From: an uncultured Candidatus Poseidoniales archaeon
GTDB taxonomy: Archaea > Thermoplasmatota > Poseidoniia > Poseidoniales > Thalassarchaeaceae
Direction: 5' to 3'
DNA: 64,000 nucleotides
Assembly: GCA_902573015.1 (NCBI GenBank)
Contig: CACGIE010000001.1
Span: 8,528 to 72,527, forward strand
The notes beneath the pieces were generated by a model. It did no database searches. It was not told the DNA's origin and worked only from the letters and a program-made list of their open reading frames with translations. This document shows, piece by piece, positions 1,112-43,180 of this stretch. How positions within the stretch are numbered: the stretch's first letter is position 1; the number at the start of each line of letters is the position of its first letter. Both the position numbers and the translations under genes were made by a program.

Positions 1112-1939
1112 ATGGACACTAGTGAACTGATGAGGGTGGCTCCGGATGAGCTTGCATCTGCCCTTCTAAACAGGAGAATGTTGCTCAAGGATAGCCTACC
1201 CGGAGTAATTAGGAATCTTGAGGCTGAAGAAGATACCCTATCCCCAAGGCTTGATAGGATGAAGAAATCCTTCGATGAAGCCAATGACAAGGTTGCCAAA
1301 TTCAAGGCCGAGAGGGATCACTTTCAGACCAGCGCTGGCATTCTAATTCCGGATGTGAAACGGATCAGGAAAAAACTGAATGAGTCTGGGGGAATGATCA
1401 GTCTTGATCCTAAATGGAAGAAGATGATGTTGCTGGAACAAATTGAAGAAATTGAGAACAAGATCCAGACATCAGCTTTAGACCATAAGTCCGAAAGGAA
1501 ACTACTAGAGAAAAGAAGATCGTTAATTTCCGAAAATGACAAATGGGTTAGAGACAGGAAGGACTCGAACCCGGAAATGGCGGAGTATCTGGAAAAGAAT
1601 AGAGAGATGTCTAAATTATTCAAGAAGGCGGATAAGGCACATTCTCAGATGATAGGTGCCGTTTCCAAAGCACAACCACTCTATGAGAAGTTAACTAGTG
1701 CCTCAGCAGAGATTAGAGAAATCAAGAGTCAATTGGACCGTGCTAAGGAGTTGCTTGCCCAGAGCGATAAAGCAATAGAATATTGGGAGAAGAGGATAGA
1801 AAATGGATTTGGAGATTTGGGACCAGGTTTCAGAGACCTCCTAAAGGGGCAAAAAAACGTTGATGCGGGGGGCAGTTCTTCTTTCGCCAAACGTTCTAGT
1901 AAATCGAAAGAAACGAAATCTAGAGGTGAAGAGGAATGA
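1112..1939 (+). CDS. archaeal coiled-coil protein, paralogue 1 of 3 (COG1340-like, function unknown)
   Basis: 275-aa K/E/R-rich heptad-like sequence. Shares ...KAERDHF... and ...LEQIEEIENKIQTSALDHKSERKLL... type motifs with the next two ORFs. Basic S/K-rich tail. Stop overlaps the next start (ATGA). Confidence 0.7.
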   Translation: MDTSELMRVAPDELASALLNRRMLLKDSLPGVIRNLEAEEDTLSPRLDRMKKSFDEANDKVAKFKAERDHFQTSAGILIPDVKRIRKKLNESGGMISLDPKWKKMMLLEQIEEIENKIQTSALDHKSERKLLEKRRSLISENDKWVRDRKDSNPEMAEYLEKNREMSKLFKKADKAHSQMIGAVSKAQPLYEKLTSASAEIREIKSQLDRAKELLAQSDKAIEYWEKRIENGFGDLGPGFRDLLKGQKNVDAGGSSSFAKRSSKSKETKSRGEEE

Positions 1940-2895
1940 ATGAGTCTTCAAAGTTTTACCAGAGTGATTTCCATGACCTGTCTGCAGAAGAAATGGAGGC
2001 AATGATTGCTGAAAAGAAGAGTACTTTGAGATCATTGGATTCAGAGAAGAGGGATCTACAGACGGAAAGGAAAGAGCAAGTACAGATTGTAAAGGCGCTC
2101 AGATCTGCAGTAGTTGGAATAGAGCAATCTGGGACTGGGAGAAAGAAGCTGCTGGGAGAGTTTCATTCCATGAGAAAACAGGCCAAGATTCACAGAGAAA
2201 AAAGAGATGAAATCAACGTAAGAGTCCCTCCTCCTTCGAAAATTCTAGAGGAGTGGCTTGGCGAGACCTACCTCACATTGACGAAAATCGACAATGACCT
2301 GACCGCAGTACCAATGTTGAATCCAGAATTATCGGCATTTAGCAGATTCTTCGAGATCCAGTCTTCAATCAAAAAGAAGAGGGAAGCAGAAAAATCTCAT
2401 TCGAAATATATTTCTAAGTTAAGTGAGATGCGAAAGATCTCCACCAAACTGGATCAAAATAAGGAAGAGTTCGGCAAGGCAAAATCTGAATTAAAGGAAA
2501 ATGTCGAAATCGAAGTAGACAAAATCAGTAGGAAAGACATACGCAAGATTAGTAGAAGTATTTCCTCTATTGATGAGAGAATTGAGGCTATCAAGATCGA
2601 AACAAATAGCGAAAGAAGTGTGTTGAAGAATCTCCAGAAGTACGCGAGGCTGTCTGCAGTCAGAGGCTCCTCCAGCATAGATGATATTCGCGGAATCGCC
2701 GCAAAGGGAGGTTATCTTAGCTCTGAAGAGCTAGGCCTGATACTAGAGACTGGTGGTTTTTCGTCAATTAATGATTCAAAAGATCCACTTCAAGAAGCAC
2801 CAAAACAGAGTCGATTACGTAAAAAGAAGACCAGGAAACTTGGCGTTTCTAGAAGAGGGGGGAGGAAAGGAAAGTCTGCCAGTCGTAGGGACTAG
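1936..2895 (+). CDS. archaeal coiled-coil protein, paralogue 2 of 3 (COG1340-like)
   Basis: 319 aa. HREKRDEINVRV matches KDRRDELNVKVR of paralogue 3. KGGYLSSEELGLILE matches SGDTLSDEDMMLLQ of paralogue 3. Strongly basic C-terminal tail (RLRKKKTRKLGVSRRGGRKGKSASRRD). Confidence 0.7.
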   Translation: MNESSKFYQSDFHDLSAEEMEAMIAEKKSTLRSLDSEKRDLQTERKEQVQIVKALRSAVVGIEQSGTGRKKLLGEFHSMRKQAKIHREKRDEINVRVPPPSKILEEWLGETYLTLTKIDNDLTAVPMLNPELSAFSRFFEIQSSIKKKREAEKSHSKYISKLSEMRKISTKLDQNKEEFGKAKSELKENVEIEVDKISRKDIRKISRSISSIDERIEAIKIETNSERSVLKNLQKYARLSAVRGSSSIDDIRGIAAKGGYLSSEELGLILETGGFSSINDSKDPLQEAPKQSRLRKKKTRKLGVSRRGGRKGKSASRRD

Positions 2896-2920
2896 AAGCT
2901 AAATAATCGGTATGGCTTAA

Positions 2921-3817
2921 ATGGAACTCCAAATTCGAAGCACTAGAGGGTTTACTTTGGGGCTCGAACAGTCGAATATCTCATCTGTTTTCGAAAAGAG
3001 TTCGGAATTGGTCAGCAAGAAGTTGGCCGAATACAAAGATCGTCGCGATGAGTTGAACGTTAAAGTAAGGACTCAGCTGGATAAGAGGAACGAAATAAAT
3101 CTGCAGGTAAAGCAGTTAATCACCGAAGTTCAGAAGCAGAAGAGCCTGAGGAACGAGGCTAATAGTAAGGTTGCTGAATTGAGGAAAATAAGACTAGAGA
3201 GAACAAACGAATTGAAGGATATTAGGGCAAAACTAAGGAGTTCGGTTGAGAAGAACGGTAGCCAGTCTGGAAAGAAGAGGAGTGGCCCTAGTTCTCGGAG
3301 TATTAGAGAACAAATGAACAAGCTTGAGTGGCGCCACCAAACTGGACAAATTAGTCCGAGTAAGGAGAAGGATTTCTTTGCAAAGATGAAGAGGTTGCAG
3401 GCAGATTTCAAAAGGCTCAAGAAAGAAGAAGAGGATAGTAGTTCAAGCGTTTTGAGAGAGGTTAGACAGGCAGAAAAAAGGCAGCAGAAGGCTCATGATG
3501 CAGTCACTGATGCATCAGAGAAATCCGAAGAAGCCCATTCACTAATGATGGAGTTATCAAATGAAGTTGACAGATTGAGGGGCATGGCAAATTCTGAGCA
3601 CTTGGGCCTAACTTCAACCAAATCGAATGCTGATGAGTTGCATAACAAGTATATCATTTCACTAAGGTGCATTCATTCAATGCAGGACATTCTGAAGCTA
3701 TCTGGTTCCAAGAAGGAGTACGAAGAAGAGAGAGTGGAGGTCTCCGACTTAATGTCCAGACTAATGAGTGGTGACACTCTTTCGGATGAGGACATGATGC
3801 TACTTCAGAGAAACTAA
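2921..3817 (+). CDS. archaeal coiled-coil protein, paralogue 3 of 3 (COG1340-like)
   Basis: 298 aa, continuous coiled-coil-type composition. Has the RDELN motif, a central LEWRHQTGQISPSKEKDFF motif and a C-terminal G.TLSDEDMMLLQ motif, which I recall as typical of the uncharacterised archaeal coiled-coil family. Confidence 0.7.
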   Translation: MELQIRSTRGFTLGLEQSNISSVFEKSSELVSKKLAEYKDRRDELNVKVRTQLDKRNEINLQVKQLITEVQKQKSLRNEANSKVAELRKIRLERTNELKDIRAKLRSSVEKNGSQSGKKRSGPSSRSIREQMNKLEWRHQTGQISPSKEKDFFAKMKRLQADFKRLKKEEEDSSSSVLREVRQAEKRQQKAHDAVTDASEKSEEAHSLMMELSNEVDRLRGMANSEHLGLTSTKSNADELHNKYIISLRCIHSMQDILKLSGSKKEYEEERVEVSDLMSRLMSGDTLSDEDMMLLQRN

Positions 3818-14096: not shown

Positions 14097-14126
14097 AAAA
14101 AACGAGGGCCTGAGAAGCCGTCAGGC
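14097..14126 (-). terminator. hairpin (GCCUGA-CGGCUUC-UCAGGC) followed by U6, between the tRNA-Lys 3' end and the rpoH start
   Basis: Minus strand reads ...CAGGCCC G CCTGACGGCTTCTCAGGC CCTCG TTTTTT CTGGGTGGGGGAAGAGTC ATG. A 6-bp stem plus oligo-T is the usual archaeal termination or pausing signal. Confidence 0.35.
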
Positions 14127-14199
14127 GGGCCTGAGGGGATTCGAACCCCCGGCCACCGGGTTAAAAGCCCGGCGCTCTACCTGACTAAGCTACAGGCCC
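14126..14199 (-). tRNA. tRNA-Lys: tRNA-Lys (anticodon UUU), 74 nt, no encoded CCA
   Basis: Folded by hand from GGGCCTGTAGCTTAGTCAGGTAGAGCGCCGGGCTTTTAACCCGGTGGCCGGGGGTTCGAATCCCCTCAGGCCCG. 7-bp acceptor, D stem GCTT/GAGC, anticodon stem CCGGG/CCCGG with loop CTTTTAA, 5-nt variable region, and T arm GGGGG-TTCGAAT-CCCCT. Confidence 0.9.
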
Positions 14200-18576: not shown

Positions 18577-18646
18577 TGCGTTCGGCCCCGAAGGGGCCGT
18601 AGTGGAACGTTAATATCCCCCTTTTTTCTGGAGCCAGATGTAGCAG

Positions 18647-19468
18647 ATGCTAGGTGAACGAAAGATGGCATCTAGACAGAAGACACTTGTGCTAATCTTA
18701 GTATCAGTATTTGTTGCAGGGTCTGGTGAGGCCCTGCATAGTGGTGTTGGAGGAAATGCAAATGGCCAAGGTGAGGTTTCCATTGCTGGGTGCACCTGTC
18801 ATGCAGAGGAGCCAGACAATTCTGTTACAGTTATTATCGATGGAGTTCCTTTCCATTATGCACCTGAAACCTCCTACGAGATGAAGTTGCAGCTAATTGG
18901 AGGGCCTGAGGCAAACCTTGATTCGCATACTGCCGGATTTGCCATGAGGGTCAGTGAGGGATCCCTCGACGCTTCAGAAGGATTCGAGTCAATGGTCCAA
19001 AATTGGGAAGGAGATGTGGCCACCCTAACACACACCGATGCGGGGTCGAGAACTTCTGATAGGTCGTGGATGTTTGTTTGGACGAGTCCGCCTGAAGGTT
19101 CCGGTTCAGTGGTTTTCAATGTAGCAGGGAACTCAGTAAATGGGGATCTAGCACCATCTAGTCTAGATCGTTGGAATCGTCTTACTGCCAGTATTGACGA
19201 AGGTGAAGACAATGGAAGAACAAAAACCGTTTTTTCAGGAAATGGGGATATTAACCCCCCAGCCCCTGTAGAAGGAAAGAAAGACATCCACAAAATGGGA
19301 GCTAAACTCCTAGCCCACTGGTTGGGACTCCTTGGATTCGGAGCAGTAATGCTAGTTATTTTGTTCTGCGGGCTATTCCTTAGATACGGATTCTCCAGGC
19401 ATTACAAGGGCAGAAGTAACCTACTGAGGCTAAGAATAAAGCATCTTAGAAGGGGCGATCAACTATGA
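18647..19468 (+). CDS. secreted, C-terminally membrane-anchored protein with a single CxCH motif (probable start at 18665); first gene of the Rieske/cyt b operon
   Basis: Signal-like MASRQKTLVLILVSVFVAGSGEA, motif IAGCTCHAEE, and a C-terminal TM (LLAHWLGLLGFGAVMLVILFCGLFL) with a basic tail. Its stop overlaps the next start. Confidence 0.6.
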   Translation: MLGERKMASRQKTLVLILVSVFVAGSGEALHSGVGGNANGQGEVSIAGCTCHAEEPDNSVTVIIDGVPFHYAPETSYEMKLQLIGGPEANLDSHTAGFAMRVSEGSLDASEGFESMVQNWEGDVATLTHTDAGSRTSDRSWMFVWTSPPEGSGSVVFNVAGNSVNGDLAPSSLDRWNRLTASIDEGEDNGRTKTVFSGNGDINPPAPVEGKKDIHKMGAKLLAHWLGLLGFGAVMLVILFCGLFLRYGFSRHYKGRSNLLRLRIKHLRRGDQL

Positions 19469-19914
19469 AAGACGACACTGTGATGAGGCTTTTGCGACAA
19501 GTAAAGTCTGGAAAGGTAAGCGTAGAAGATGCCAGAGTGGCTCTTGAAGATGCCGCGCTGACGGAAGAGGCCTTCGAAGCAGCAGTCAATCATGGAGTAT
19601 TCAACGAAGTCAAGCCCGGGACAATTGTAAGAGCTAGTCTTGCACCATCTGGGGATTCGTGGCTGATCATAATGGTAGGACTATGGGGGGTTCTTTGGAC
19701 TCTTTATTGGGCGGGAGCCCTAGCATACGGACTATACCAACACTGGGATCAGCAACTGCTCGCATTCAATCTGGCGATGACTCTTCTCACACTAATAATC
19801 ATGGGGATTGTATATCTAAAATATGTACTTCCGGATGTGATAATTGTCAAGCATAGGAGAAACAAGTACATTACAAGTCACGATACAAACTCTTGGAAAA
19901 AGTACGAGGTCTAA
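19465..19914 (+). CDS. small two-TM membrane protein with an N-terminal SHOCT-like helix
   Basis: 149 aa. LLRQVKSGKVSVEDARVALE, then two hydrophobic helices. 4-nt overlap upstream and 2-nt gap downstream. Confidence 0.5.
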   Translation: MKDDTVMRLLRQVKSGKVSVEDARVALEDAALTEEAFEAAVNHGVFNEVKPGTIVRASLAPSGDSWLIIMVGLWGVLWTLYWAGALAYGLYQHWDQQLLAFNLAMTLLTLIIMGIVYLKYVLPDVIIVKHRRNKYITSHDTNSWKKYEV

Positions 19915-19916
19915 AA

Positions 19917-20765
19917 ATGGCAAGGAAATTTAAGCTACGTCCTGTCTCATCTGAGGATGAGCTCGTTCACGAGAGGAGCGGTGCAATAGACAGAAGGGAG
20001 TTCATGAGGCTGTCTTTCAATACAGCAGCCGGATTGATCACTACTGCATCACTGGGCAGTGTCGGGTTCGCTTCTTTCCTAATGGGCCAAGCGGAAGGAG
20101 GTGCTTCGGACTCTTCCATAAAATTCTATGTCCCCAAGGGTTCAGATGTGTGGTACAGTAACATGGACAAGCAGCCCATGACGTTGCAATCTTTCGTAGA
20201 CGAGTCTGCAAACACAACTACCGGAATGGTTGGAGCCGCAGGACTTTGGTCCGGCTTACCCATCATTGCCACATACGTCCCACACGAGGAAAACAAAAAC
20301 AAGCCATTAGAAGCAGGCACCCCTAGATTCCAGATGATGGACGGATACACCGCCGGCGGTGCATATGTAGGATCCGGCTATGAAATCGAAGAAAAGGAGG
20401 AATTTGCATCGTTGAATATTCATGATAATCTGATCATTGTTTTCGCTAGATGTCCTCACTTATGCTGCATTCCCGGATGGCAATTGGTGAGTAATGACTT
20501 CACTGCAGATAGCTGGCTGCCTGGTGGAACTGACTCAAGTGGGAACAAATCATTCTGTATCTGCCACTCTAGCAGGTACGACCACACTGTTATAGAGAAG
20601 AATACAGCTAGAAATAGATCCAATGGACAGGAGTTTGACTTCATAGGAGTAAAGAAGACCGGTGGGCCTGCTCCGTACGGCATGCCACTGATTCCTTTCA
20701 CAGTAAGTGGAGGGGTTATTGAGGCACTTCCAGATTTCATGGACTGGTACACATTCTGCGGGTAG
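19917..20765 (+). CDS. Rieske [2Fe-2S] protein with a twin-arginine signal/anchor
   Basis: DRREFMRLSF (Tat motif), box I CPHLCC (20451-), box II CICHSS (20556-). I chose the ATG at 19917 over the TTG at 19893 in the track, because it follows the upstream stop directly. Confidence 0.85.
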   Translation: MARKFKLRPVSSEDELVHERSGAIDRREFMRLSFNTAAGLITTASLGSVGFASFLMGQAEGGASDSSIKFYVPKGSDVWYSNMDKQPMTLQSFVDESANTTTGMVGAAGLWSGLPIIATYVPHEENKNKPLEAGTPRFQMMDGYTAGGAYVGSGYEIEEKEEFASLNIHDNLIIVFARCPHLCCIPGWQLVSNDFTADSWLPGGTDSSGNKSFCICHSSRYDHTVIEKNTARNRSNGQEFDFIGVKKTGGPAPYGMPLIPFTVSGGVIEALPDFMDWYTFCG

Positions 20766-21647
20766 GTGAAAAATATGATTCAATTCTGGTTCCTATGGAT
20801 TTTCATTGCTTTCGTTGTTGTAATTGTCGCCTTCACACTCAGAAGAGAGAGGGACGATATGCCAAGGAAGGACATTCTGAGGGCAGTAGAGACAAATGCT
20901 GGCAGCATGGGTCTAGCCGAGAAGTTGTTCCTATGGGCTTTCTCTTGGCTAGACACCAGATTCAGGATCCAAGACTACTGGGGCATGAGCAAAGACTCCT
21001 ACTACAGCATGCATCGTCAGATGCCTTTGACTCATGCCGAGAAGTACAAACTGAGAATAATTTGGTATTGGTACCCGCTCTACTGCTTGGGCGGAATTTC
21101 ATTCCTGGCATTCATCATCTTGGTGATTACTGGTACCATTCTAGGATTCTACTATGTCCCGGGAGGGGATTTGGACTCTGATCCGACACCGGCCTATGCA
21201 TCGATGGAGTTCATCATGCTAGAGTTGCCTTTCGGATATATCATCAGGTCTATACACCATTGGGGAACGCACTTCTTTGTTGCTGCAGTTTTCCTACACA
21301 TGTGTAGAGTCTATTTCACTGGGGCATACAGAAACCCCAGGGAACTGAACTGGTTGATCGGAGTTGCTCTAATGTTCTTCTCCATTTTCTTCGGTTACTC
21401 TGGATATCTGCTGCCATGGGATAGTTTGGCCTTTGGGGCGGCCACCATCGGTATCAACATGGCCATGGCCACCCCTCTGATTGGGGAGTGGGTGGCTAAT
21501 GCTATGTTCGGAGGGACTACATTGACTGGTCAGACAGTAGTCAGGATGTACTTCCTTCACGTGTTCGTTCTGCCGCTGATTGTTACTGTTCTCATTCTGG
21601 CACATCTATTCATTGTCTGGGTACAGGGAATTGCGGAGCCGCACTGA
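20766..21647 (+). CDS. cytochrome b, N-terminal four-helix (b6-like) domain
   Basis: IRSIHHWGTHFFVAAVFLHMCRVYFTGAY, FSIFFGYSGYLLPWD, and MYFLHVFVLPLIVTVLILAHL. These give the two His pairs of helices B and D. Confidence 0.9.
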   Translation: MKNMIQFWFLWIFIAFVVVIVAFTLRRERDDMPRKDILRAVETNAGSMGLAEKLFLWAFSWLDTRFRIQDYWGMSKDSYYSMHRQMPLTHAEKYKLRIIWYWYPLYCLGGISFLAFIILVITGTILGFYYVPGGDLDSDPTPAYASMEFIMLELPFGYIIRSIHHWGTHFFVAAVFLHMCRVYFTGAYRNPRELNWLIGVALMFFSIFFGYSGYLLPWDSLAFGAATIGINMAMATPLIGEWVANAMFGGTTLTGQTVVRMYFLHVFVLPLIVTVLILAHLFIVWVQGIAEPH

Positions 21648-21656
21648 GGTGATTGG

Positions 21657-24471
21657 ATGGGGATTATAGAGAGATTTGGAAGAATTGCTGACACCTATGT
21701 TAGTGAGAAGGAGCAGCTCCTAGGGGCGGAAGAGGAAAGGAGGAGAGTGCATACTGGCCATGGTTTCTGGCCGACGGAAGTTCTCAGGGATACTATCATT
21801 TTCGCGTCGATAGTGATGGTAATTGCATTCTACTCTTGGATTATTCCCCCCCCCTCTGCACAATGCTGCAGATCCATATGCCCAGGCGGGCTTCGTTTTC
21901 CCGGATTGGTACGTTCTATTCTCTTACGGTTACCTAAGATGGGGAGAGTATTTGCCGCAATTCGACATCCCTGCTGGCCCGATAGGGGAGTTCTTTGGCC
22001 AGCCAATCGTGTCATGGAACGCCGGAGTATGGGGGGCGATGATCACTGGGCTCCCAGTTGCAATTCTTGCACTACCACCATTCATCATTGGAAAGAGGGA
22101 GAAGAGGGGGGTAGAGGACCCATGGTTCGCCACGGCGGGAGCGGTTTACCTAGCGCACGTATGGTTTATTTCTGTATTCTCGATTAACATCTTCCTGGAG
22201 ATGTATGGTCAGAATCGTAGTGATTACTGTTGGGCCGGGCCCCATGGGACCTTCTTCTGCGGTACTCAACCCCCGTGGACTGCTGAGGTATTCAATGCTG
22301 TTCCATGGATTCTCACAGGTGTTTTCATCTTCGTCGTATTATACTTCTCGGTGAGGAAATTCCTGATAGGTCCGATGGGCTCTAGGCTGACTCCCATTCT
22401 TGGCAGACAGGTCGCCGTAGGATCTGTGGTAGCCACCGTTCTCCTATGTACGGTTACTTGGCCGGTCTACGAAAACGGATTCTGGAATCAGAGAGGCCTG
22501 GGAACGATGGGATTCTGGGAGTACCAGTATGATGCCAAGCTCGTGGAGTTGGATGGAATAAGGGGGCAGCCGGGAGATACCCTAATCCATGTGGACAAGG
22601 GTCCCGTATGGGCGGAATGGGAGGACGAATGCCTTCCATACGAGCAAACGAGTACCCTGTCTGTCTGGGAAACTATGGAAGAGGGGACGACGCATTCTGA
22701 ATGGTGTATTTTGCCCGCAAAACATTTTGTTAACTGGGGAATTTTCCAACCAACTCGTAGTCAGATAGTAGATTTCAGCGGGGTGAACGGTCATGCCGAC
22801 ACACAAACGTCTAGGAATATTGGGGCGAATGAAATCATCTACCAAGGAGAAGATGATGGCAGTCCGATTTCAATTTCTGAGTCTATCCAGTTCGAGGTCG
22901 AGGATCTTGGCATATCCAAGGTTCAAACTGACATAGGTTGCAACTTCAGAACTACAGTAAGAAATGCTGGTGAGCACTCTCAGAGCCTGACTCTAACAGA
23001 TGATTCGGGGCAGGAACTTTGGTCCAACTCCGGCTCCACCTGCGAGTCAGGAACAATGTACCTCGATTCTGGAAGATCATACACGATTTCCTTCACTACC
23101 CTGTCCGAGCAGGTTAATGACTCGGTCACAATGATTTCAGACTTCTCAGCAGTTTCCTACCAGCCTCTACTGCTCAACGATGATGGGACTGCACTAATCA
23201 GATCAGAAGTCAGTCTCAGCGATGAGGAACTGGCATCCATGTCTGTCGCAAATCCCACCTACAAGAAGAATCCCAAGAGTCTTGATGCCAAGCTGATCTA
23301 CTCGATGTTCATACCATGCCTAGGAGTAGGGGCTCTTGTTTTCATGCTCCTCAGGAGCATGGCACGAGGATATGAATGGGAGATGAATAAGTGCTATGGA
23401 TGCGATTTGTGCGATGATGCCTGCCCTGTGAGGTTATTCAACGCTGGAGATAAACTGAACATAATCTACAACACCTGGAACAATGAAGACGACGGAGTCC
23501 CACTTTACTCGTGTCTAACCTGCACCGCCTGTACAAATGCCTGTCCACAATTAGTCGACTACGACTCATATATTGACATCAGAAGGAACCTTGTCGTAGG
23601 CGGCCCTCCTGCTACGGAAATCCCTCACACAGTGCTGCAAGCAGTACTAGCTGCTGAAGCAGAAGAAGACGCGGATGACTCATTCATCCCTGTAGAGGAG
23701 TACCCATTAGACTCTAGCATAGGTTACTATCCGGGATGTGTAGACTACATTGACCAGGAGATGGTCTTCAGTCACGTGAACAAGGGCACTATGGATCTCG
23801 GAGATGCCACAACTTCCGCATTCACGATTTTCGAGGAGATGGGCGAGGATGTGACATACCTAGGTCGCGACTTCCTGAAGTGCTGCGGACATGACCAGAA
23901 ATGGCAGGGGATGAGTGAGGTCTTCGAGAAGTTGAAGGCTTACAATCAAAAGAAGCTCGGAGAGAGTGGGATAGAGACTCTAGTAACTTCTTGTGCTGAG
24001 TGTTTCAGAACCTTCGCTTTGGACTATGAGTTAGATGACATGAAGGTAATGCACACCACAGAATTCCTTGTCGAGAAGGGTTTCGACATGGACTTGAAGT
24101 CAAACGATGAAGTCACCGTAACTTACCACGATCCATGCAGGCTGGGTAGGCAGATGAATATCTACGACGAGCCCCGGGACTTGGTAGGTTCTGTAGACGG
24201 GGTGAATCTAGTGGAAATGGAACATACCGGAGAAGACGCTCTCTGTTGTGGAGTCTCCAGCATGATGTCATGTAATGAGAACAGCAGGGCACTAAGAGTA
24301 CAGAGATTCGATGAAGTAAGGGAAACAGGGGCAGACATCATGCTGACATCTTGTCCGAAGTGTGTTGCTCATTTCGAGTGTCTAAAGTTCGAGGGAGATC
24401 CAAGACATGACTTCGAGATTCTAGATGTTGTAAGCTTCCTGGCTAGGCAGATAGAAGAGTCCAGGGGATAG
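21657..24471 (+). CDS. cytochrome b C-terminal (subunit IV-like) domain fused to an HdrD/GlpC-like 2x[4Fe-4S] + 2xCCG module; interrupted by a 1-nt frameshift in a C9 run (21846-21854)
   Basis: ORFs 21657-22187 and 21823-24471 join in the C9 run to give ...VMVIAFYSWIIPPPLHNAADPYAQAGFVFPDWYVLFSYGYLRW, that is helix E plus a PEWY-type loop. Downstream lie extra TMs, a hydrophilic domain of about 270 aa and one more TM. Then come CYGCDLCDDACP, CLTCTACTNACP, YYPGC..KCCGHD and YHDPC..LCCGVSS..SCPKC. Confidence 0.85.
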
Positions 24472-24474
24472 AGC

Positions 24475-24588
24475 ATGACCAAGATCGGTGACGTCCTGAA
24501 GAGGAGGACTGCTGAGCAGTCCAGAATTAGGAAGCAACTGAATTCAATGAGAGCAGAAGAGGAGGCCCTCCTGAAGGGGGGGGGATGA
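24475..24588 (+). CDS. 37-codon ORF ending in a G9 run; possibly the N-terminus of the downstream ferredoxin
   Basis: ATG lies 4 nt after the upstream stop. Translation is MTKIGDVLKRRTAEQSRIRKQLNSMRAEEEALLKGGG*. The ferredoxin frame is open back into the G9 run. Confidence 0.25.
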   Translation: MTKIGDVLKRRTAEQSRIRKQLNSMRAEEEALLKGGG

Positions 24589-24613
24589 CGCGGTTGCTTG
24601 GGTAAAGGAAGAG

Positions 24614-24808
24614 ATGTGCATAGGATGTGATCAGTGCACGATAGTTTGTGATGACGATGCCATAGAGTTGTACGATACACCGCTGGCCAGCCCAATTATG
24701 GAAATTGATGTAAATAGAAAGGCGAGAGTCCTCAGGGAACCCTGCACTGGATGCAAGCTTTGCGTACTTGCTTGCCCCACTGATGCGATAATAATGATTG
24801 ACAGGTGA
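24614..24808 (+). CDS. 2x[4Fe-4S] ferredoxin
   Basis: 64 aa with CIGCDQCTIVC and CTGCKLCVLACP cluster motifs. Confidence 0.75.
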   Translation: MCIGCDQCTIVCDDDAIELYDTPLASPIMEIDVNRKARVLREPCTGCKLCVLACPTDAIIMIDR

Positions 24809-24812
24809 TTGC

Positions 24813-25097
24813 ATGGGGAAGGATGATCCAGTCAGGTTCGGGGCAGAGTTTGGCCCTCACAGAACAAAGAGGGCGAGTGGGGTTTCATTGTCTACATTCA
24901 AGACCCTTGTGTGGGTTTCTAATCTTGGTGGCCTATTCCTATTCGCAATTGGAATGGAGTTGATGATAAGAGGGTCATTCTGGTTCGGAATCACTTGTAT
25001 AGTGATTGGAGTTGCCATCGCACTCTTCCCTTCGAACTATGAGATAGTAGGGATGGAGGAAATGGATGAAGGATGGTTGGCGGGGGAAGAAGAATAA
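24813..25097 (+). CDS. small two-TM membrane protein (ATG at 24813 preferred over TTG at 24798)
   Basis: Hydrophobic segments LVWVSNLGGLFLFAIGMELMI and FWFGITCIVIGVAIALF. Tightly packed in the operon. Confidence 0.45.
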   Translation: MGKDDPVRFGAEFGPHRTKRASGVSLSTFKTLVWVSNLGGLFLFAIGMELMIRGSFWFGITCIVIGVAIALFPSNYEIVGMEEMDEGWLAGEEE

Positions 25098-25379
25098 ATG
25101 GCAGGGACACCATTCCAGAATAGAGTCTGGAGTGAAATCAAAAATATCCCCGCGGGTCAAACCAGGACATACAAAGAAATCGCAGTTTTAATCGGAAATC
25201 CTGGATCATCAAGAGCTGTGGCCAATGCTTGTGCAGCCAACCCAAATCCAATCACAGTACCGTGTCATAGAGTAATTCGTTCTGATGGTAGGCACGGAGG
25301 ATACAGTGGACCCGGGGGATCTTCTAGGAAGAGTGCACTAATTTCATCGGAAAGAGAAATTACATCTAGAAATACTTGA
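25098..25379 (+). CDS. ogt: methylated-DNA--protein-cysteine methyltransferase, C-terminal (active-site) domain only
   Basis: 93 aa. TPFQNRVW..IPAGQTRTYKEIA...SRAVANACAANPNPITVPCHRVI contains the PCHRV active site and helix-turn-helix. The start directly abuts the upstream stop. Confidence 0.8.
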   Translation: MAGTPFQNRVWSEIKNIPAGQTRTYKEIAVLIGNPGSSRAVANACAANPNPITVPCHRVIRSDGRHGGYSGPGGSSRKSALISSEREITSRNT

Positions 25380-31971: not shown

Positions 31972-32092
31972 GTGGCACAGCGACGGCCTTTCCCGTGGGC
32001 TTTCGCACCACAGTACCGGAACCGACGCAGGAGGGCTTGACTTCCGGGTTCGATATGGGACCGGGTAGGACCCCTCCGCTATGGCCGTGCAC
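31972..32092 (-). rRNA. rrf: 5S rRNA (121 nt)
   Basis: Minus strand reads GTGCACGGCCATAGCGGAGGGGTCCTACCCGGTCCCATATCGAACCCGGAAGTCAAGCCCTCCTGCG...GGGAAAGGCCGTCGCTGTGCCAC. Helix I closes 5'-GUGCACGGC with GCUGUGCCAC-3'. Conserved CCGAAC and AGUA-type loop regions are present. Confidence 0.9.
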
Positions 32093-32110
32093 AACTCTTC
32101 CTTCGAATGT

Positions 32111-32144
32111 GAATTGATATGCTCTTTTGGACAGAGACTCACAT
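32111..32144 (-). other. 3' arm of the pre-23S processing helix (pairs with 35069-35102)
   Basis: Plus-strand gaattgatatgc at 32111-32122 is the exact reverse complement of gcatatcaattc at 35091-35102. Extended imperfect pairing follows (acagagactcacat versus atgtgaggcctctg...). Confidence 0.6.
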
Positions 32145-32164
32145 GTAGTGTGTATCTCGAAATT

Positions 32165-35046
<2,882 letters not shown>

Positions 35047-35068
35047 TTATTTCTTATTGTACTCACTA

Positions 35069-38418: not shown

Positions 38419-39252
38419 TCAGGGACCGTTCTGTTCCCACCAAAGATGCCCATATGCTGCCCATTGCTCCATTGACCACCCATCTGGAAGTCCGGTGATT
38501 GGTAGCGGCATCGCTCCTTCGGGAACTTGGTGAGTAGGGAGAGTGGGGACAGTTGCCTGAAGCGTTTCATTGATCTCTGACTCCGAGACCCCCCCGGTAA
38601 CAACGTCCCCTGTTGTGTAGGTATCTAGAGCAGCCGCTCTTCTTTCTTCCTTTGTCCCTGCCTGGAGGGCTGATCCTCGAGGAATCAGTTCTTCATCCGA
38701 ATCAACTGGGGAGAATTCCTGTCTGGCCCTAATCCCAAGTGAGATTAGTGCACCCAATACAACTACGAACAGTACTGCTAGAGTCCAAGCTGGGAGGCCT
38801 AAAGTTTCGAACAATCCTGATATGCCCCCTTGATTGGAGGATTTGGATTTGCTGACATCAAAAACAAAGGACGAGTTAGTCAGAGTTGCCGTGCTGTCCT
38901 GAGATGTTGAGTTGGCGTAGAATCGCAATTGAGTGAGTCCGTCCTCTGCCGATTTTCTAGGGGTTATTGAGACTGTAATTTCGTAATGATTCCCTGGTTC
39001 TAATTCCTCTGCTGGCCATTGGTATTTTACGGTCCAACCATCGATTTCTTCATGATTGATTAATATCGGGGATTCGGTGTTACCCTTGTTTTGCACTACC
39101 AATACCAGAGTTGTTTCCTCCCCCTCGGCAATTCCCTGAATGCTGGGGGTCTCAGATTGAGCTTCCAGCCAAACTGAGGGTAGGACTGTTACATCCAAAT
39201 CTAATGTGACTGTTTCAGTGGAGAGGCTGGGCGATGTGGACTGTATTATCAC
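38419..39252 (-). CDS. C-terminal part of the S8 protease gene: last beta-domain, TM anchor and cytoplasmic tail. Separated from 39260-43180 by a 1-nt frameshift in a G8/C8 run.
   Basis: No signal peptide of its own. TM segment LPAWTLAVLFVVVLGALISLGI followed by RARQ. The frame is open upstream into the C8 run at 39278-39285. Confidence 0.7.
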   Translation of the reverse strand: MIIQSTSPSLSTETVTLDLDVTVLPSVWLEAQSETPSIQGIAEGEETTLVLVVQNKGNTESPILINHEEIDGWTVKYQWPAEELEPGNHYEITVSITPRKSAEDGLTQLRFYANSTSQDSTATLTNSSFVFDVSKSKSSNQGGISGLFETLGLPAWTLAVLFVVVLGALISLGIRARQEFSPVDSDEELIPRGSALQAGTKEERRAAALDTYTTGDVVTGGVSESEINETLQATVPTLPTHQVPEGAMPLPITGLPDGWSMEQWAAYGHLWWEQNGP

Positions 39253-39259
39253 TGGAACC

Positions 39260-42200
39260 TTATTCGATAGAGTTCCTGGGGGGGGTTCCGCTAGGTAACT
39301 GTAGAGCGATATTGACTACAGAGTCCCGATTCATGTCCATGGAGAAAGTGCTTCCTGTCAGGAAGCCTCCGGACCAACCCTCAGGAAGAGTGCCTAGTGT
39401 GAGTTCAATCAACAGTGGTACGTTTCCAGAATTGTGCAAGAAAATATTGGCATTCCCATCCCTACCCAAAGAGATTGAGAATCCTTCTTCAGCCTGTACG
39501 TCCAGAGTTGTGATTTCTTTAACTTCTAGGACCGTCGCATTAGTGACGATATTGTCGTCTAAAGTAGTCTTGATAGTCACGGTGTTTCTGTCACCTTTTA
39601 CTGAAGCTAGGGGAACAATAGTCCTGATAATTATTCTAGATTCTGAACCGGGATCGATATCTGTTTGTATTGTTGTGTCCTCTCCCAATGGAGGATCTTC
39701 GTCGTATAGATAAACCTGTATTGGCCAAGTATTGCTAGATGATAATGCCCTTACGTCGAAATTTAGTGGAATATTTCCCCTGTTGGAAATTGTCAGTATT
39801 GTAGAAATTGTGTCTCCATTTTGTACTGCACGAGATTCAGTTATGGCTACGGGTCCTAATTCGTTTCCTTCAATATCTGAAATCTGGGTTGAGAATGCCC
39901 TGCTCTCTAGAACCTCGACTGTGGCTGTCTCCGTAGTTTGCAGATTTGGATCATTAACCGAAGTTGTGATGCAGGTTACTAGATTTGTATCTCCTGCGAG
40001 GATACCAGAAGAGGCTGGCGGGACCTTTACGCGAATAGGGACAGGAACGAATTGGAGCCTGCTGAGCGGACCAATTGTTACTTCGGGAACTTGGCTGCTT
40101 CCTACGTGAACAATCCATCTATCTTCTGTTTCACAGGAAATTCCGTATTCAGTGGGGCCATTTCCTATGTTCCTAACTGATAGTGTAAAAAGCGCGAATT
40201 CGTTTGGTTCGGCCCCTAGATCTTCTGTCCCAGCAGGAACAGTGAAGAGTCCCTCAACCCGGTCTATATCGACAGAAAGTCGAACAGAATGCGAAATTGT
40301 TGGTGCCATCTTGTCGTATAGAATCAGGTCAGTCACGAAATGTCCGGGGAGTGCGAATCTACTCTCCACGTCAGCATCTTCGTCTGTTAAATTAAGAGAA
40401 ATTAGGACTCTGTCTCCAGACTCTCCCGATGGAGACAGAACCCATGGTCCTGAATCGCTAAGGGTCTCGGACCACTCATCCTGAGGAGACGACATGATTC
40501 CTGAATCTCCTATTTCCTGGACTGCAGAAATCGAAAGTTCCACGGTGGTTTCCGAAGTTCCTTCGTTAACTAACTCCAACTGGAAGTTTGCCCAGCTCTC
40601 AGTGCTGGGGTTGATGTCCCTATTCCTAGCAGACTGAGACTCGACGAAATCAGTAGGATAAGACCCATCTGCCATTAGGGGTATGATTCTTACACCAATC
40701 TCTGTAACGTTGAATTCTAGATCGAAGATGTTGTTATTCGTCCCGATGGTCTCGTCGTTCAATTCATCAACTTGAGAAAGGTAATCTAGGGTTAGTCTGA
40801 CCAAGTGAGTCCCGGTCGACTGGAATGAGTGGTAAATAGAGAATGTCTCTATCTGCCCCCCCGGTAATGAGGGCATTGAGTATGTCCCTATTTCGTTTCC
40901 ATCGGTCACATCTTCAAGAGATATTGAGTACTGTCCAGTTGGAGCTGCAGCCTGATTTATCCAGGAAAGTTGCAGGGAAATTGTGTCCCCCTTTAGAGGA
41001 CTGGTTTCTGAACTGAAGATGGAATTGGGAACTACTGTTAAGTCGGCCTCTTGCAATTCGATTGCGTTGGAAGAAACAACCAGTGAGAAGTCTTGGGAGA
41101 ATCCGCCTGAATGCCCTATCTTGACTGTCCAAATTCCTGATTCAGTAGACGCGATTCTGACCCTCTCTAGATTGTTCAAAATGTCGATTTTGCCAGTTGA
41201 CTGACTAAAACCATTTGCGAAGTCGTTACCGTTGAACTGCTCTCCCGAAGGCGAGGTTACGACTAAGTCTAGATCGTTTACTAGCCGACTTGTATTCTGG
41301 TCTGCTGATGCGGACCCTTCCCTGTCGTTCCAAGACAGAGTGGCATCAAGTGCGTTATTCCCGGAAACTTCGAAGGTATAGATGAAACTATGGCCGGGTA
41401 AGAGATTTCTATCCTGATCCAAAAATAGCGTTTGATTTATCCCGTTGCTTTGGGGGAAAATACTGTTTGAGATGTTTAGTTGCCCCCAACCCTCTTGCGG
41501 GTTTGGGACATCTAATTCTCCAATATCTTCGGCACCGTTTACGAGTATTGCTCTAATCAAATCAGAGTTTGGGGACGTCATTCCGACTTCCTCTCTCAGG
41601 AACTGTCGAACCATTGCTGAAGCACCCGCCACCACCGGAGTAGCCATAGAAGACCCACTTAGGGTCATGTAGAGTGGAGTTGTTCCATCGGTATGCAACG
41701 ACTCTGAGCAACTACCTCCTGTAGTTAGGTCGGCCTCTTGTGCTCTAGCAGAGCAGATCATAACACCTGGTGCAACCAATTCGGGCTTTATTCGGCCATC
41801 GGAAGTAGGTCCTGATGATGATTCGTCAGAGACCTGTCCTACGGGTTCAGAACCGAATGCTCCTGTTGTGGAAGCACCAACAGTGAGGGAATTCTTTGCC
41901 GTGCTCGGAGATGCGACACCCGAGTTTGACATATCTCCCGATGAGAAGATAACTAACATCTCTGGATAGTCGTTCGCGAATAAATCAATTGATCTGGAAT
42001 CGGAAGTGTACTCGCCGACCAGGTTCTCGCTACCCCAACTGTTTGTGTGGATATTTGCATCGTTCAGAAAGGAGTGTTCGAACATATCGTACAGAGAACC
42101 CCACCGTGCGAGTATTCCAGAACTATCCACTTCTAACTGGTAGAAATGAAATGTAGACTCGGGGACAATGCCCGTAGAATTTGAGTCTCCCGACCCGTCC

Positions 42201-43180
42201 CCCAGAAGAGTGGCGGTAACATGGGTGCCGTGGCCAGTGTTTGAGTCAGCACCAGAGCTGTCTGGACCAAATAGGTTGTAGATCGGATTTCGGAGACGAT
42301 TTCCGAAGTCACCGTGATCTACGTCAAGGCCCGTATCTGAAATTCCTATGACTTCTCCCTCTCCACGTAAATCTAATTCAGATAGTGATCTTGCATAGTC
42401 TACTCCTGAGATTATGCTAGCATTTGAATTGTGTATTGCAAGGACCGGACCCATCTCCACCCTTAGAACGCGGAAATCTGTAGCAAGAGAGGAGATTAGA
42501 GATGTTTTAGCGGATTTTACCTTGCACAGATATTTGTCGCAGTGAGACTGCGCATGTAATTCTCCCGTTTTCTCGAAAAGTTCCCTTTCAAGATTTGATA
42601 GATCTTCGGGAGAGTTAGAGGGAGAAGGAGTGATGTCGAGATCGATTAGGGCCCCATCCAGATCCATTAACGGGTACAGTGTCTTAGAAATCTTCCACGT
42701 CGTTGGAAACTGGCCGACCCACCTAACTTGATTCAATTCTTGGATGGTATTGATTTGCTCGCCTATTCTCGATGATGCAATGCTAATGACGACGGAATCA
42801 TCAGGAAAATGATCAATAATTTGTATTCCTAGGAAATTTAACGAGTCCTCCAGTTCCTGTAGGTCGGAGCTATGGGACTGAACAATGAATAGTCTTCCAT
42901 CATTGAATTCGGAGAGGCCTATCTTTTCCCATGGTCCTGCTGGGGTAGATTCAGTCAGAGGATCGAATTGTCCGAATGGTGAGTGGATTAATCCTGAAGA
43001 CTCACTAATTGGATGATTGCCAATTGATGGATTATGAAGAACTACCCAATTATTTTCTGTTATGGGTGAGGACATAGATTGTGTCCTTTCTTCATCAATA
43101 CTTTCCATTGAAATTTTAGAAGAAATTGGTGAAAGTAAAATCAAAGAAACTGCAAAGTAAATTGCTTTTGCAGAAGTCAT
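39260..43180 (-). CDS. giant secreted subtilisin-like (S8) serine protease with many Ig/CARDB-like beta domains
   Basis: Signal peptide MTSAKAIYFAVSLILLSPISS. Catalytic triad motifs ISDTGLDVDHGDF (Asp), GHGTHVTATLLG (His) and SGSSMATPVVAGASAMV (Ser). About 800 aa of repeated beta-type domains follow. Confidence 0.9.
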   Translation of the reverse strand: MTSAKAIYFAVSLILLSPISSKISMESIDEERTQSMSSPITENNWVVLHNPSIGNHPISESSGLIHSPFGQFDPLTESTPAGPWEKIGLSEFNDGRLFIVQSHSSDLQELEDSLNFLGIQIIDHFPDDSVVISIASSRIGEQINTIQELNQVRWVGQFPTTWKISKTLYPLMDLDGALIDLDITPSPSNSPEDLSNLERELFEKTGELHAQSHCDKYLCKVKSAKTSLISSLATDFRVLRVEMGPVLAIHNSNASIISGVDYARSLSELDLRGEGEVIGISDTGLDVDHGDFGNRLRNPIYNLFGPDSSGADSNTGHGTHVTATLLGDGSGDSNSTGIVPESTFHFYQLEVDSSGILARWGSLYDMFEHSFLNDANIHTNSWGSENLVGEYTSDSRSIDLFANDYPEMLVIFSSGDMSNSGVASPSTAKNSLTVGASTTGAFGSEPVGQVSDESSSGPTSDGRIKPELVAPGVMICSARAQEADLTTGGSCSESLHTDGTTPLYMTLSGSSMATPVVAGASAMVRQFLREEVGMTSPNSDLIRAILVNGAEDIGELDVPNPQEGWGQLNISNSIFPQSNGINQTLFLDQDRNLLPGHSFIYTFEVSGNNALDATLSWNDREGSASADQNTSRLVNDLDLVVTSPSGEQFNGNDFANGFSQSTGKIDILNNLERVRIASTESGIWTVKIGHSGGFSQDFSLVVSSNAIELQEADLTVVPNSIFSSETSPLKGDTISLQLSWINQAAAPTGQYSISLEDVTDGNEIGTYSMPSLPGGQIETFSIYHSFQSTGTHLVRLTLDYLSQVDELNDETIGTNNNIFDLEFNVTEIGVRIIPLMADGSYPTDFVESQSARNRDINPSTESWANFQLELVNEGTSETTVELSISAVQEIGDSGIMSSPQDEWSETLSDSGPWVLSPSGESGDRVLISLNLTDEDADVESRFALPGHFVTDLILYDKMAPTISHSVRLSVDIDRVEGLFTVPAGTEDLGAEPNEFALFTLSVRNIGNGPTEYGISCETEDRWIVHVGSSQVPEVTIGPLSRLQFVPVPIRVKVPPASSGILAGDTNLVTCITTSVNDPNLQTTETATVEVLESRAFSTQISDIEGNELGPVAITESRAVQNGDTISTILTISNRGNIPLNFDVRALSSSNTWPIQVYLYDEDPPLGEDTTIQTDIDPGSESRIIIRTIVPLASVKGDRNTVTIKTTLDDNIVTNATVLEVKEITTLDVQAEEGFSISLGRDGNANIFLHNSGNVPLLIELTLGTLPEGWSGGFLTGSTFSMDMNRDSVVNIALQLPSGTPPRNSIE

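Follow-up and report, generated by a model that had tools for sequence, protein, structure and literature searches.

How can a quinol-oxidising complex pass on the electron of its Rieske protein when no cytochrome c1 or f is encoded beside it, and what is a cytoplasmic Fe-S module doing in one chain with its cytochrome b? Both questions are raised by a gene cluster of a Marine Group IIb (MGIIb) archaeon (Thalassarchaeaceae, Poseidoniales), which occupies positions 18647-25379 of the stretch of DNA analysed here (64,000 nt; assembly GCA_902573015.1, contig CACGIE010000001.1, positions 8,528-72,527, forward strand; hereafter the window). The cluster consists of eight genes, g1-g8, including a Rieske protein, a cytochrome b6-type protein and a fusion of subunit IV with an HdrD-like module. 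The best explanation is that it belongs to an archaeal family of Rieske/cytochrome b6-type quinol oxidoreductases which has not been described before, and that it is the Marine Group II (MGII) version of this family. We consider it highly probable that the cluster encodes a complex III analogue that is electrically wired to the cytoplasm. The whole picture, in which the wiring leads to ferredoxin-type carriers and the electrons flow inward, is given an even chance by the sequence evidence.

The membrane core and its fused Fe-S module

Each substantial open reading frame (ORF) of the cluster lies on the plus strand, and neighbouring ORFs overlap by 4 nt or stand no more than 9 nt apart. A first-pass annotation of this DNA had described such a run of tightly packed genes on one strand, and its coordinates and strand were found to be right; where it allowed overlaps or gaps of up to 25 nt, the spacing is -4 to +9 nt. 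It had counted nine genes, but eight are present, and its 37-codon ORF is the N-terminus of a ferredoxin that is split by an extra G. The identities that it gave to g1 (a CxCH protein), g3 (a Tat-type Rieske protein), g4 (cytochrome b) and g7 (a protein with two transmembrane (TM) helices) were borne out. A scan found relatives of the fusion in 499 GTDB species genomes; the neighbourhood counts below refer to the best 80 of these, which are all Poseidoniales and mostly Thalassarchaeaceae, with a top match that is 99% identical.

The cytochrome b of the cluster is divided between two genes. The g4 product (20766-21647, plus strand) is of the cytochrome b6 type, carries helices A-D together with an extra N-terminal TM helix and ends past helix D, and g5 begins at helix E. 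It matches PF00033 (E 6e-42) and cytochrome b6 in the PDB (E 1.6e-41), and the four haem-ligand histidines of helices B and D (haems bL and bH) are aligned and conserved. Its YCLGG motif, kept in 86 of 87 loci, aligns with the FYCLGG of cytochrome b6, the motif of the haem-ci Cys35, and attachment of haem ci is predicted from the sequence alone. The distant locus L089 (2209-2940), whose cluster includes a cytochrome c with six haems and a partner of the HdrA type, has FYYLGG instead of YCLGG; judged from this motif, some members of the family probably lack haem ci.

The Rieske protein g3 (19917-20765, plus strand; likely start ATG 19917 in an ORF that opens with TTG at 19893) is strongly divergent. 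Its match to TIGR01416 is partial and under the cutoff (E 5e-8), its best PDB match has an E of 0.14, and the Pfam Rieske model gives no match to the MGII protein but does match the positional counterparts in L081, L090 and L092. The DRREFMR Tat motif and the CPHLCC...CICHSS boxes (C-x-H-x-C-C and C-x-C-H-x-S) are conserved in all loci, and these include the [2Fe-2S] ligands and the disulfide cysteines of a Rieske protein. Box I holds an extra cysteine (C-x-H-x-C-C against the canonical C-x-H-x-G-C), which is kept in MGII and in most of the distant members; box I of L082 reads CTHLSC, without the extra cysteine. Directly before g3 lies g2 (19465-19914, plus strand), a DUF7318-like small subunit with an N-terminal SHOCT-like helix. 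The first-pass annotation had called it a SHOCT-like protein with two TM helices. The helices are there (residues 67-85 and 98-116), but the SHOCT-like match is weak and so is that to Pfam DUF7318 (E 1.7e-5, 25.3 bits, under the cutoff of 27); in a pairwise comparison, g2 matched the DUF7318 protein of L089 with an E of 1e-5.

The g5 gene (21657-24471, plus strand; frame broken at a C9 run in the window) encodes the fusion of subunit IV with the HdrD/EtfD-like module, a protein of 937 aa. Helices E-G with the PDWY motif are followed by two extra TM helices, a variable beta-sandwich ectodomain, a further TM helix and a cytoplasmic part with two [4Fe-4S] and two CCG motifs. Six TM helices are predicted in total; if the chain starts on the cytoplasmic side, as subunit IV does, residues ~285-535 would be outside and the Fe-S/CCG module inside. 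The AF2 model (mean pLDDT 72) has a beta-sandwich on the outside and an HdrB/LutA/EtfD-type fold on the inside. PDWY, the PEWY-type Qo motif of the ef loop, is invariant in all 82 loci. The C-terminus matches Pfam Fer4_8/9/10 and, in two stretches, CCG (E 9e-23), and the full set of HdrD motifs was found, that is two [4Fe-4S] and two CCG (Cx31-39CCx35-36CxxC) with all cysteines invariant. The module also matches the profiles of TfrB, LdhH, GlpC, GlcF and DsrK. Its closest solved structure is EtfD of M. smegmatis (9ojn; sequence E 2e-21, fold E 8e-14), and LutA is the second-best fold match. Among the MGII orthologues, subunit IV and the [4Fe-4S] and CCG parts are 81-94% identical and the ectodomain 42%.

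The fusion is in frame in every relative, as the first-pass annotation had read it, so the module is not an unrelated neighbouring GlpC-like gene, an alternative which that annotation had raised itself. The frame of the window has to be repaired at two places. The C9 homopolymer (21846-21854, plus strand) carries one surplus base, and the resulting +1 frameshift divides an ORF from 21657 (MGIIERF...GFWPTEVLRD...WIIPPP), which reads as the start of subunit IV, from an 882-codon ORF called at 21823, which continues with ...PPPLHNAADPY...FPDWY. Relatives are in frame here with CCC CCN CCN. Deletion of one C gives the joined protein of 937 aa, and database homologues of 926-942 aa cover 100% of the length of the repaired protein with 73-95% identity. 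In g6, the 37-codon ORF (24475-24588) ends at a G9 homopolymer (24576-24584, plus strand) that also has one surplus base and a +1 frameshift; when one G is deleted, a ferredoxin of 110 aa results, which is a single ORF in 12 of the 12 relatives inspected.

The window holds only four homopolymers of at least 8 nt, two of them within the cluster and three of them coding. At the third coding one, a G8 at 39278-39285 in a gene that is unrelated to the cluster, deletion of one base merges the ORFs 39260-43180 and 38419-39252 (minus strand) into one of 1586 aa with no internal stop. The frameshifts at C9 and G9 are homopolymer over-calls, which are artefacts of sequencing or assembly, because all three coding homopolymers of at least 8 nt carry exactly one extra base. 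The same +1 error in all three also led us to reject programmed frameshifting and pseudogenes. That the cluster is decaying or phase-variable, and not functional in the source strain, would agree with the interruption of both genes in the window sequence as given, but we regard it as extremely improbable, since the surplus base is found in the unrelated 1586-aa gene too and the frames, which have no other break, share 95-99% identity with relatives that are not interrupted. Errors of this kind have split key genes in the annotation of the assembly, and other genes may be split likewise.

The comparison with known complexes shows what is shared and what is not. In common with the b6f and the Firmicute-type b6c complexes, the MGII cluster has a cytochrome b split after helix D, four haem histidines, YCLGG, a PEWY-type PDWY motif and a Tat-exported Rieske protein. 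Every feature that was tested for the Rieske/cytochrome b superfamily and for the b6-type split was found, but cytochrome f was not. Unlike b6f and b6c, MGII has no cytochrome f or c subunit and has a Reeler-fold GCxCH protein instead; its subunit IV bears three extra TM helices, the ectodomain and the fused HdrD-like Fe-S module, its cytochrome b has the extra N-terminal helix, and its Rieske protein is very divergent. In b6f, haem ci on the cytoplasmic side is the proposed entry for ferredoxin electrons in cyclic flow.

With EtfD (Rv0338c/PDB 9ojn) and the syntrophic ETF:methylmenaquinone oxidoreductase EMO, the fusion shares a soluble module of two [4Fe-4S] motifs and two CCG domains joined to a haem-b membrane domain. 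In EtfD, electrons are passed from ETF to the CCG clusters, the two cubane [4Fe-4S] clusters, haem b and then menaquinone (PMC13083937). However, the membrane part of EtfD is a 5-TM mono-haem domain and that of MGII a Rieske/cytochrome b complex, and the disordered tail of ~260 aa in EtfD is absent from the MGII protein. In HdrDE, DsrMK(JOP), HmeCD, TmcBC and QmoABC, too, a cytoplasmic HdrD-type module is electrically coupled to b haems in the membrane and to the quinone pool, and the distant relatives of the MGII cluster add HdrA-like and MvhD-like modules as in Qmo/Hdr. The HdrDE-type systems use a dihaem cytochrome of the NarI/HdrE type, whereas MGII has a Rieske/cytochrome b6 Q-cycle machine; HdrE is missing, and the membrane partner is cytochrome b6/subunit IV by fusion. 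MGII are aerobic heterotrophs without methanogenic or sulfate-reducing pathways (PMC6336850).

The genes themselves have been seen before. Tully (2019) listed them as "MGII specific (complex III)", with cytochrome b and Rieske proteins but without canonical bc1 partners (PMC6336850); they are the same genes as ours, and neither the fusion, nor the Reeler/GCxCH subunit, nor the linkage of 'RnfB' to cytochrome b is described there. The first-pass annotation had asked for canonical bc1 partners elsewhere in the genome, and the literature reports none in MGII (PMC6336850). The cluster appears to be the only complex-III-like respiratory gene cluster of MGII. In the literature, we found no description of a subunit IV-HdrD fusion, of the g1 family as a Rieske acceptor or of a gene link between RnfB and cytochrome b; the fusion is not mentioned in PMC11237513, PMC9287336, PMC4429474 or a 2024 Asgard preprint.

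The ectodomain of g5 was considered as a redox or catalytic domain and rejected, as it is a generic beta-sandwich (GOLD-like matches) that is poorly conserved, and its four cysteines form no metal motif. We take it to be a surface-exposed, non-catalytic part, as the sequence and the model suggest. In many non-MGII members, the cytochrome b carries an N-terminal extracellular array of Big_5 repeats of 500-600 aa (L084, 898-3174; L086, 5426-7924; L090, 7343-9973; L092, 7366-9984). Because this array sits on cytochrome b outside MGII and the ectodomain sits inside the fusion in MGII, a bulky and fast-evolving outer domain seems to be a constant need of the complex that is supplied by different genes.

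The exported Reeler-fold protein g1

The first gene, g1 (18647-19468, plus strand), encodes a protein with a signal peptide, a GCTCH motif and a C-terminal TM helix. It is predicted to be Sec-exported, and its CxC pair provides the sole extracellular cysteines. It scores above the cutoff of the NCBIfam family choice-of-anchor V (NF041895; 82.5 bits, cutoff 42), and its AF2 ectodomain matches the F-spondin reeler domain (E 4e-6). In the Foldseek search, the ectodomain matched 3coo and 2zou with E values of 4e-6 to 5e-6 and a TM-score to the target of ~0.56, so that both the family profile and the Reeler-type beta-sandwich were found. Four residues (C49, C51, H52 and H129) and the anchor motif HxMGAxLxAHWLG do not vary among 30 homologues, and GCTCH stands ~20 residues past the predicted cleavage site of the signal peptide. 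The membrane anchor and tail are unusually conserved in these homologues (HxMGAxLxAHWLGLLGF...GRSNLLRLRIKHLRRGDQL), and GCxCH is kept in all 74 loci.

The first-pass annotation had stated that no cytochrome c1/f, blue-copper protein or terminal oxidase is encoded here, and this holds for the whole window of 64 kb; neither the cluster nor the rest of the window contains a gene for a CxxCH protein. It had also proposed that the first gene product serves the high-potential branch, and this proposal has gained support from some relatives, in which the same place is taken by a multihaem cytochrome c whose C-terminal anchor is similar. In L082 and L089, a cytochrome c with five or six haems is the first gene instead of g1, and what g1 shares with the cytochrome c of L082 is the anchor only (pairwise E 8e-5). 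Two genes of the g1 type are also present in the distant cluster L086; they keep the anchor, read GCYCH at the motif and show 31% identity over 222 aa. Mainly because of this positional replacement by a multihaem cytochrome c, we place g1 in the role of cytochrome c1/f; it probably occupies that position and is a candidate for a new type of Rieske electron acceptor.

A relationship of g1 to cytochrome f or to cupredoxins was rejected, as a PDB profile search gave chance matches only and Foldseek returned Reeler and generic Ig-like folds; a C-terminal C..H..M copper loop is also absent. The CbsAB-SoxLN-OdsN cluster of Sulfolobus is comparable in its order of an exported anchored redox protein, a small membrane protein, Rieske and cytochrome b, and there too an exported protein that is not a cytochrome c stands in for cytochrome c1. 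It differs in that CbsA is a mono-haem b glycoprotein and not a Reeler fold, SoxN is an unsplit cytochrome b, and there is no Fe-S/CCG fusion.

Conservation and cytoplasmic partners

Genes g1-g7 are found in the same order in every locus that extends over all of them. Within the family, the genes on either side (CetZ-like tubulin, TPR and MeaB) are syntenic as well, and synteny within the family therefore says little alone. Distant archaea were reached by a search of 1.8 billion representative proteins, which gave shorter subunit IV::HdrD fusions of 540-790 aa with 33-41% identity and without the ectodomain, and by a profile search, which gave ~45 further clusters with labels including "Thermoplasmata archaeon" and "Candidatus Geothermarchaeales". 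A core of four genes (DUF7318 2-TM protein, Rieske, cytochrome b6 and fusion) occurs there with unrelated flanks. The conservation of the neighbourhood, which the first-pass annotation had named as a check, is thus kept even in distant lineages with different flanks. A Pfam DUF7318 match stands directly before Rieske in five of eight contexts (L089, L090, L091, L092 and the P0124 contig); in L081/L082, L086 and the MGIIa locus L087, an unannotated small protein is found at this position.

In these distant clusters, the core is always followed directly by a gene for a cytoplasmic Fe-S partner. It adjoins the end of the fusion gene or overlaps it, and in most cases the stop codon of the one gene overlaps the start codon of the other. 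The partner is a polyferredoxin in L084, a Fer4-FlpD fusion in L090 and L092, and an HdrA-like protein in L089. L086 has a flavoprotein, a polyferredoxin and FlpD, and L082 has HdrC-, HdrB- and HdrA-like proteins with MvhD. The longest description is that of L091 from a Geothermarchaeales metagenome-assembled genome (3707-12784), where the fusion is followed by an FrhB-like F420-binding protein, an HdrA-like protein of 1019 aa, MvhD/FlpD, a further HdrD-like protein, a GcvH-like protein of the lipoate-carrier type and a GlcD/GlcF-like pair. The L091 set is reminiscent of the Hdr-like systems in sulfur oxidisers for which a lipoate-binding protein is required. A LUD_dom-Fer4-CCG protein is encoded ~4 kb downstream in L090 and L092.

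In Poseidoniales, the partner is reduced to a ferredoxin of 110 aa and a 2-TM protein. The ferredoxin g6 (24475-24808, plus strand; frame broken at G9 in the window) has a clostridial-type 2x[4Fe-4S] domain of the polyferredoxin/PsaC type after a charged N-terminal helix of ~45 aa. With the rnfB profile TIGR01944 it scores 46.1 bits where the cutoff is 68.7, and the match is confined to profile positions 101-163, so it does not qualify as RnfB. MGII have been reported to possess haem-copper oxidases, degradation of proteins and of fatty acids (acyl-CoA dehydrogenases) and a lone, unexplained 'RnfB' without RnfACDEG (PMC6336850). As g6 gives a sub-threshold rnfB match, it is probably this orphan RnfB. 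The adjacent g7 (24813-25097, plus strand; TM helices at residues 37-55 and 59-77, ORF opening with TTG at 24798) is present in 76 of 80 loci and remains next to the ferredoxin gene even in MGIIa, where both are inverted together, and a 2-TM protein of 82 aa also follows the polyferredoxin of L084. Going by this arrangement, g7 may be a membrane anchor for g6.

The tight junction between g5 and g6 is the minority state, with a gap below 60 nt in 11 of 77 related loci. In 42 of the 77, all MGIIb, a conserved gene for a 111-aa membrane protein lies on the opposite strand between g5 and g6 (for example L001, 10811-11146, minus strand); the window has no such gene between 24471 and 24475. The pair of ferredoxin and 2-TM genes is inverted onto the other strand in the MGIIa relative L087, and within Poseidoniales it is a separable module. 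The last gene, g8 (25098-25379, plus strand; PF01035 E 8e-32, TIGR00589), encodes a short Ogt of 93 aa, a C-terminal domain with the VPCHRV active site and without the N-terminal domain. Because Ogt is present in only 66 of 80 MGIIb loci and in neither MGIIa nor the distant clusters, it is a co-oriented passenger outside the complex. The single nine-gene operon unit of the first-pass annotation is consequently not upheld, and the cluster is best regarded as two modules, g1-g5 and g6-g7, with Ogt as a non-conserved passenger.

Beside the inverted pair, other genes were noted. In L087/L088 (12147-15573, minus strand) and L068, the genes upstream of the pair encode a glutamate-cysteine ligase of the GshA family and an amidotransferase similar to asparagine synthase, which in MGIIa possibly belong to a thiol-cofactor pathway. 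The amidotransferase alone forms an insert of ~2 kb after Ogt in 43 MGIIb loci; both genes are absent from the window. A thiol link through GshA was rejected, as GshA adjoins the ferredoxin in only three loci, probably by local synteny.

Direction of electron flow and its meaning for Marine Group II

We propose that quinol would be oxidised at the Qo site and that one electron would pass through Rieske and g1 to a terminal oxidase. The ferredoxin g6, for which g7 is the probable membrane anchor, and the fused Fe-S/CCG module would serve as a wire from low-potential soluble carriers to haem bH/ci, and the b-haem chain would serve a Qi site that also takes electrons from cytoplasmic ferredoxin-type carriers. 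The donors would be reduced ferredoxin or a flavoprotein such as ETF, supplied by the oxidation of 2-oxoacids, amino acids and fatty acids. The cofactor motifs are intact and conserved in ~80 genomes, which supports this scheme. The direction is most likely inward to quinone by analogy, because EtfD is the closest solved relative and partners of the F420/HdrA type are found in relatives; the membrane branch is taken as the acceptor because the FrhB-like, HdrA-like and MvhD proteins of L091 are electron-input or flavin-bifurcation modules. The first-pass annotation had offered a split at Qo with one electron leaving through the b haems to the cytoplasmic Fe-S/CCG chemistry, or the reverse. The outward version lost ground, and the reverse, entry from the cytoplasm, gained it from the likeness to EtfD and from these partners.

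Several observations weigh against inward flow through a g1-containing complex. The named profile that scores best with g5 is thiol:fumarate reductase TfrB, and thiol/disulfide chemistry is a possible function of the module by its sequence. EtfD differs from the MGII protein at the cluster ligands, having CTG (linear [3Fe-4S]) and a His ligand in CPHC where MGII has CCG/CCG and CAEC, and it is the CTG and His ligand that make the clusters of EtfD non-catalytic (PMC13083937). The GCxCH loop of g1 was modelled at low confidence, and three distant clusters have no adjoining gene of the g1 type.

Part of this evidence suits an outward-driven enzyme, in which one electron from Qo would go to Rieske and g1 and the other would travel via bL and bH to the HdrD-like module and reduce g6 or a cytoplasmic disulfide, either that of a low-molecular-weight thiol or one within a protein; this would amount to a bifurcation or redox loop based on quinone. 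In HdrDE and DsrMK, electrons run from quinol through haem b to a CCG site. Both CCG motifs of g5 are complete as in the catalytic HdrB/HdrD and unlike EtfD, TfrB is a thiol-oxidising or disulfide-forming enzyme, L082 has HdrB-, HdrC- and HdrA-like genes behind its fusion, and GshA adjoins the ferredoxin in one inspected MGIIa place and one MGIIb locus. We nevertheless hold this direction to be rather unlikely. MGII are aerobes with no known heterodisulfide, GshA is adjacent in 3 of ~90 loci, and a complete CCG set is also present in LutA, GlcF, GlpC and SdhE, which are not disulfide enzymes. Moreover, electron transfer from bH to a low-potential Fe-S cluster against the membrane potential should be unfavourable in an energised aerobe, and the presence of separate HdrB/C beside the fusion in L082 suggests that the fused module there is a wire. 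A further reading also appears doubtful, that of a quinone-based bifurcating machine in which the split at Qo could send one electron to oxygen via a new class of extracellular redox protein, a Reeler fold with a metal or haem bound by CxCH, and the other via the b haems and the catalytic-type, non-cubane CCG sites to ferredoxin or a thiol disulfide in the cytoplasm.

The profile matches to LdhH, GlpC and GlcF and the fold matches to EtfD and LutA could instead mean that the module is a docking platform for one flavoprotein dehydrogenase (of the ETF, lactate, glycolate, glycerol-3-phosphate or succinate type), with the part that GlpC, GlcF, LutA, SdhE or EtfD itself plays elsewhere, and that g6 is an accessory cluster carrier. 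The LUD_dom-Fer4-CCG protein downstream in L090 and L092 would agree with this, as would the fatty-acid degradation of MGII via acyl-CoA dehydrogenases (PMC6336850). However, no dehydrogenase or ETF gene is linked in any Poseidoniales locus, where nothing but the ferredoxin and its 2-TM protein is conserved as a neighbour, and the distant partners are of the HdrA, MvhD and polyferredoxin type and not GlpAB, GlcDE or LutBC; we judge a dedicated platform to be unlikely. The treatment of the locus in the literature as simply an 'MGII-specific complex III' would be satisfied by an ordinary complex III analogue whose Fe-S/CCG domain carries no flux and acts as a structural part, an assembly factor or a sensor of redox state or oxygen by which the complex is regulated. 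This is improbable, as the Fe-S and CCG parts are the most conserved of the protein (81-94% identity, every cysteine ligand invariant) and the fusion is always coupled to an Fe-S partner gene of its own, even at phylum-level distances.

A TATA-like box, TTAATAT (18608-18614, plus strand), was read by eye 33-39 nt upstream of the g1 ATG and is a candidate archaeal promoter for a near-leaderless transcript; manual inspection found no run of T5 or longer within g2-g8. On the minus strand, the region 31972-35050 holds an archaeal 23S rRNA (32162-35050) and a 5S rRNA (31972-32092). A 16S rRNA was not found in the 64-kb window, and the rRNA genes appear to be unlinked. A tRNA lies at 14126-14199. 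Of the three tandem genes at 1112-3817 (plus strand), two give DUF7121 matches (E 2e-7 and 3e-16); they are uncharacterised archaeal paralogues and have no relation to the cluster.

Marine Group II ranks among the most abundant archaeal groups of the surface ocean, none of its members has ever been cultured, and drawings of its respiratory chain have left a gap at complex III and included a lone 'RnfB'. Our analysis joins these two into one conserved gene set and places the set in a wider archaeal family of DUF7318 protein, Rieske, cytochrome b6 and subunit IV::HdrD fusion. The modules are familiar; what is new is their combination and the probable replacement of cytochrome c1/f, and the ecological weight of the host adds to the worth of biochemical work. 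Even under inward flow, g1 would be a previously unknown functional replacement of cytochrome c1/f. The complex would be a natural case of a Q-cycle enzyme that is covalently wired to cytoplasmic Fe-S carriers. As such, it may bear on how ferredoxin electrons enter b6f-type complexes at haem ci and on how ferredoxin is re-oxidised in aerobic archaea that rely on ferredoxin-dependent oxidoreductases.

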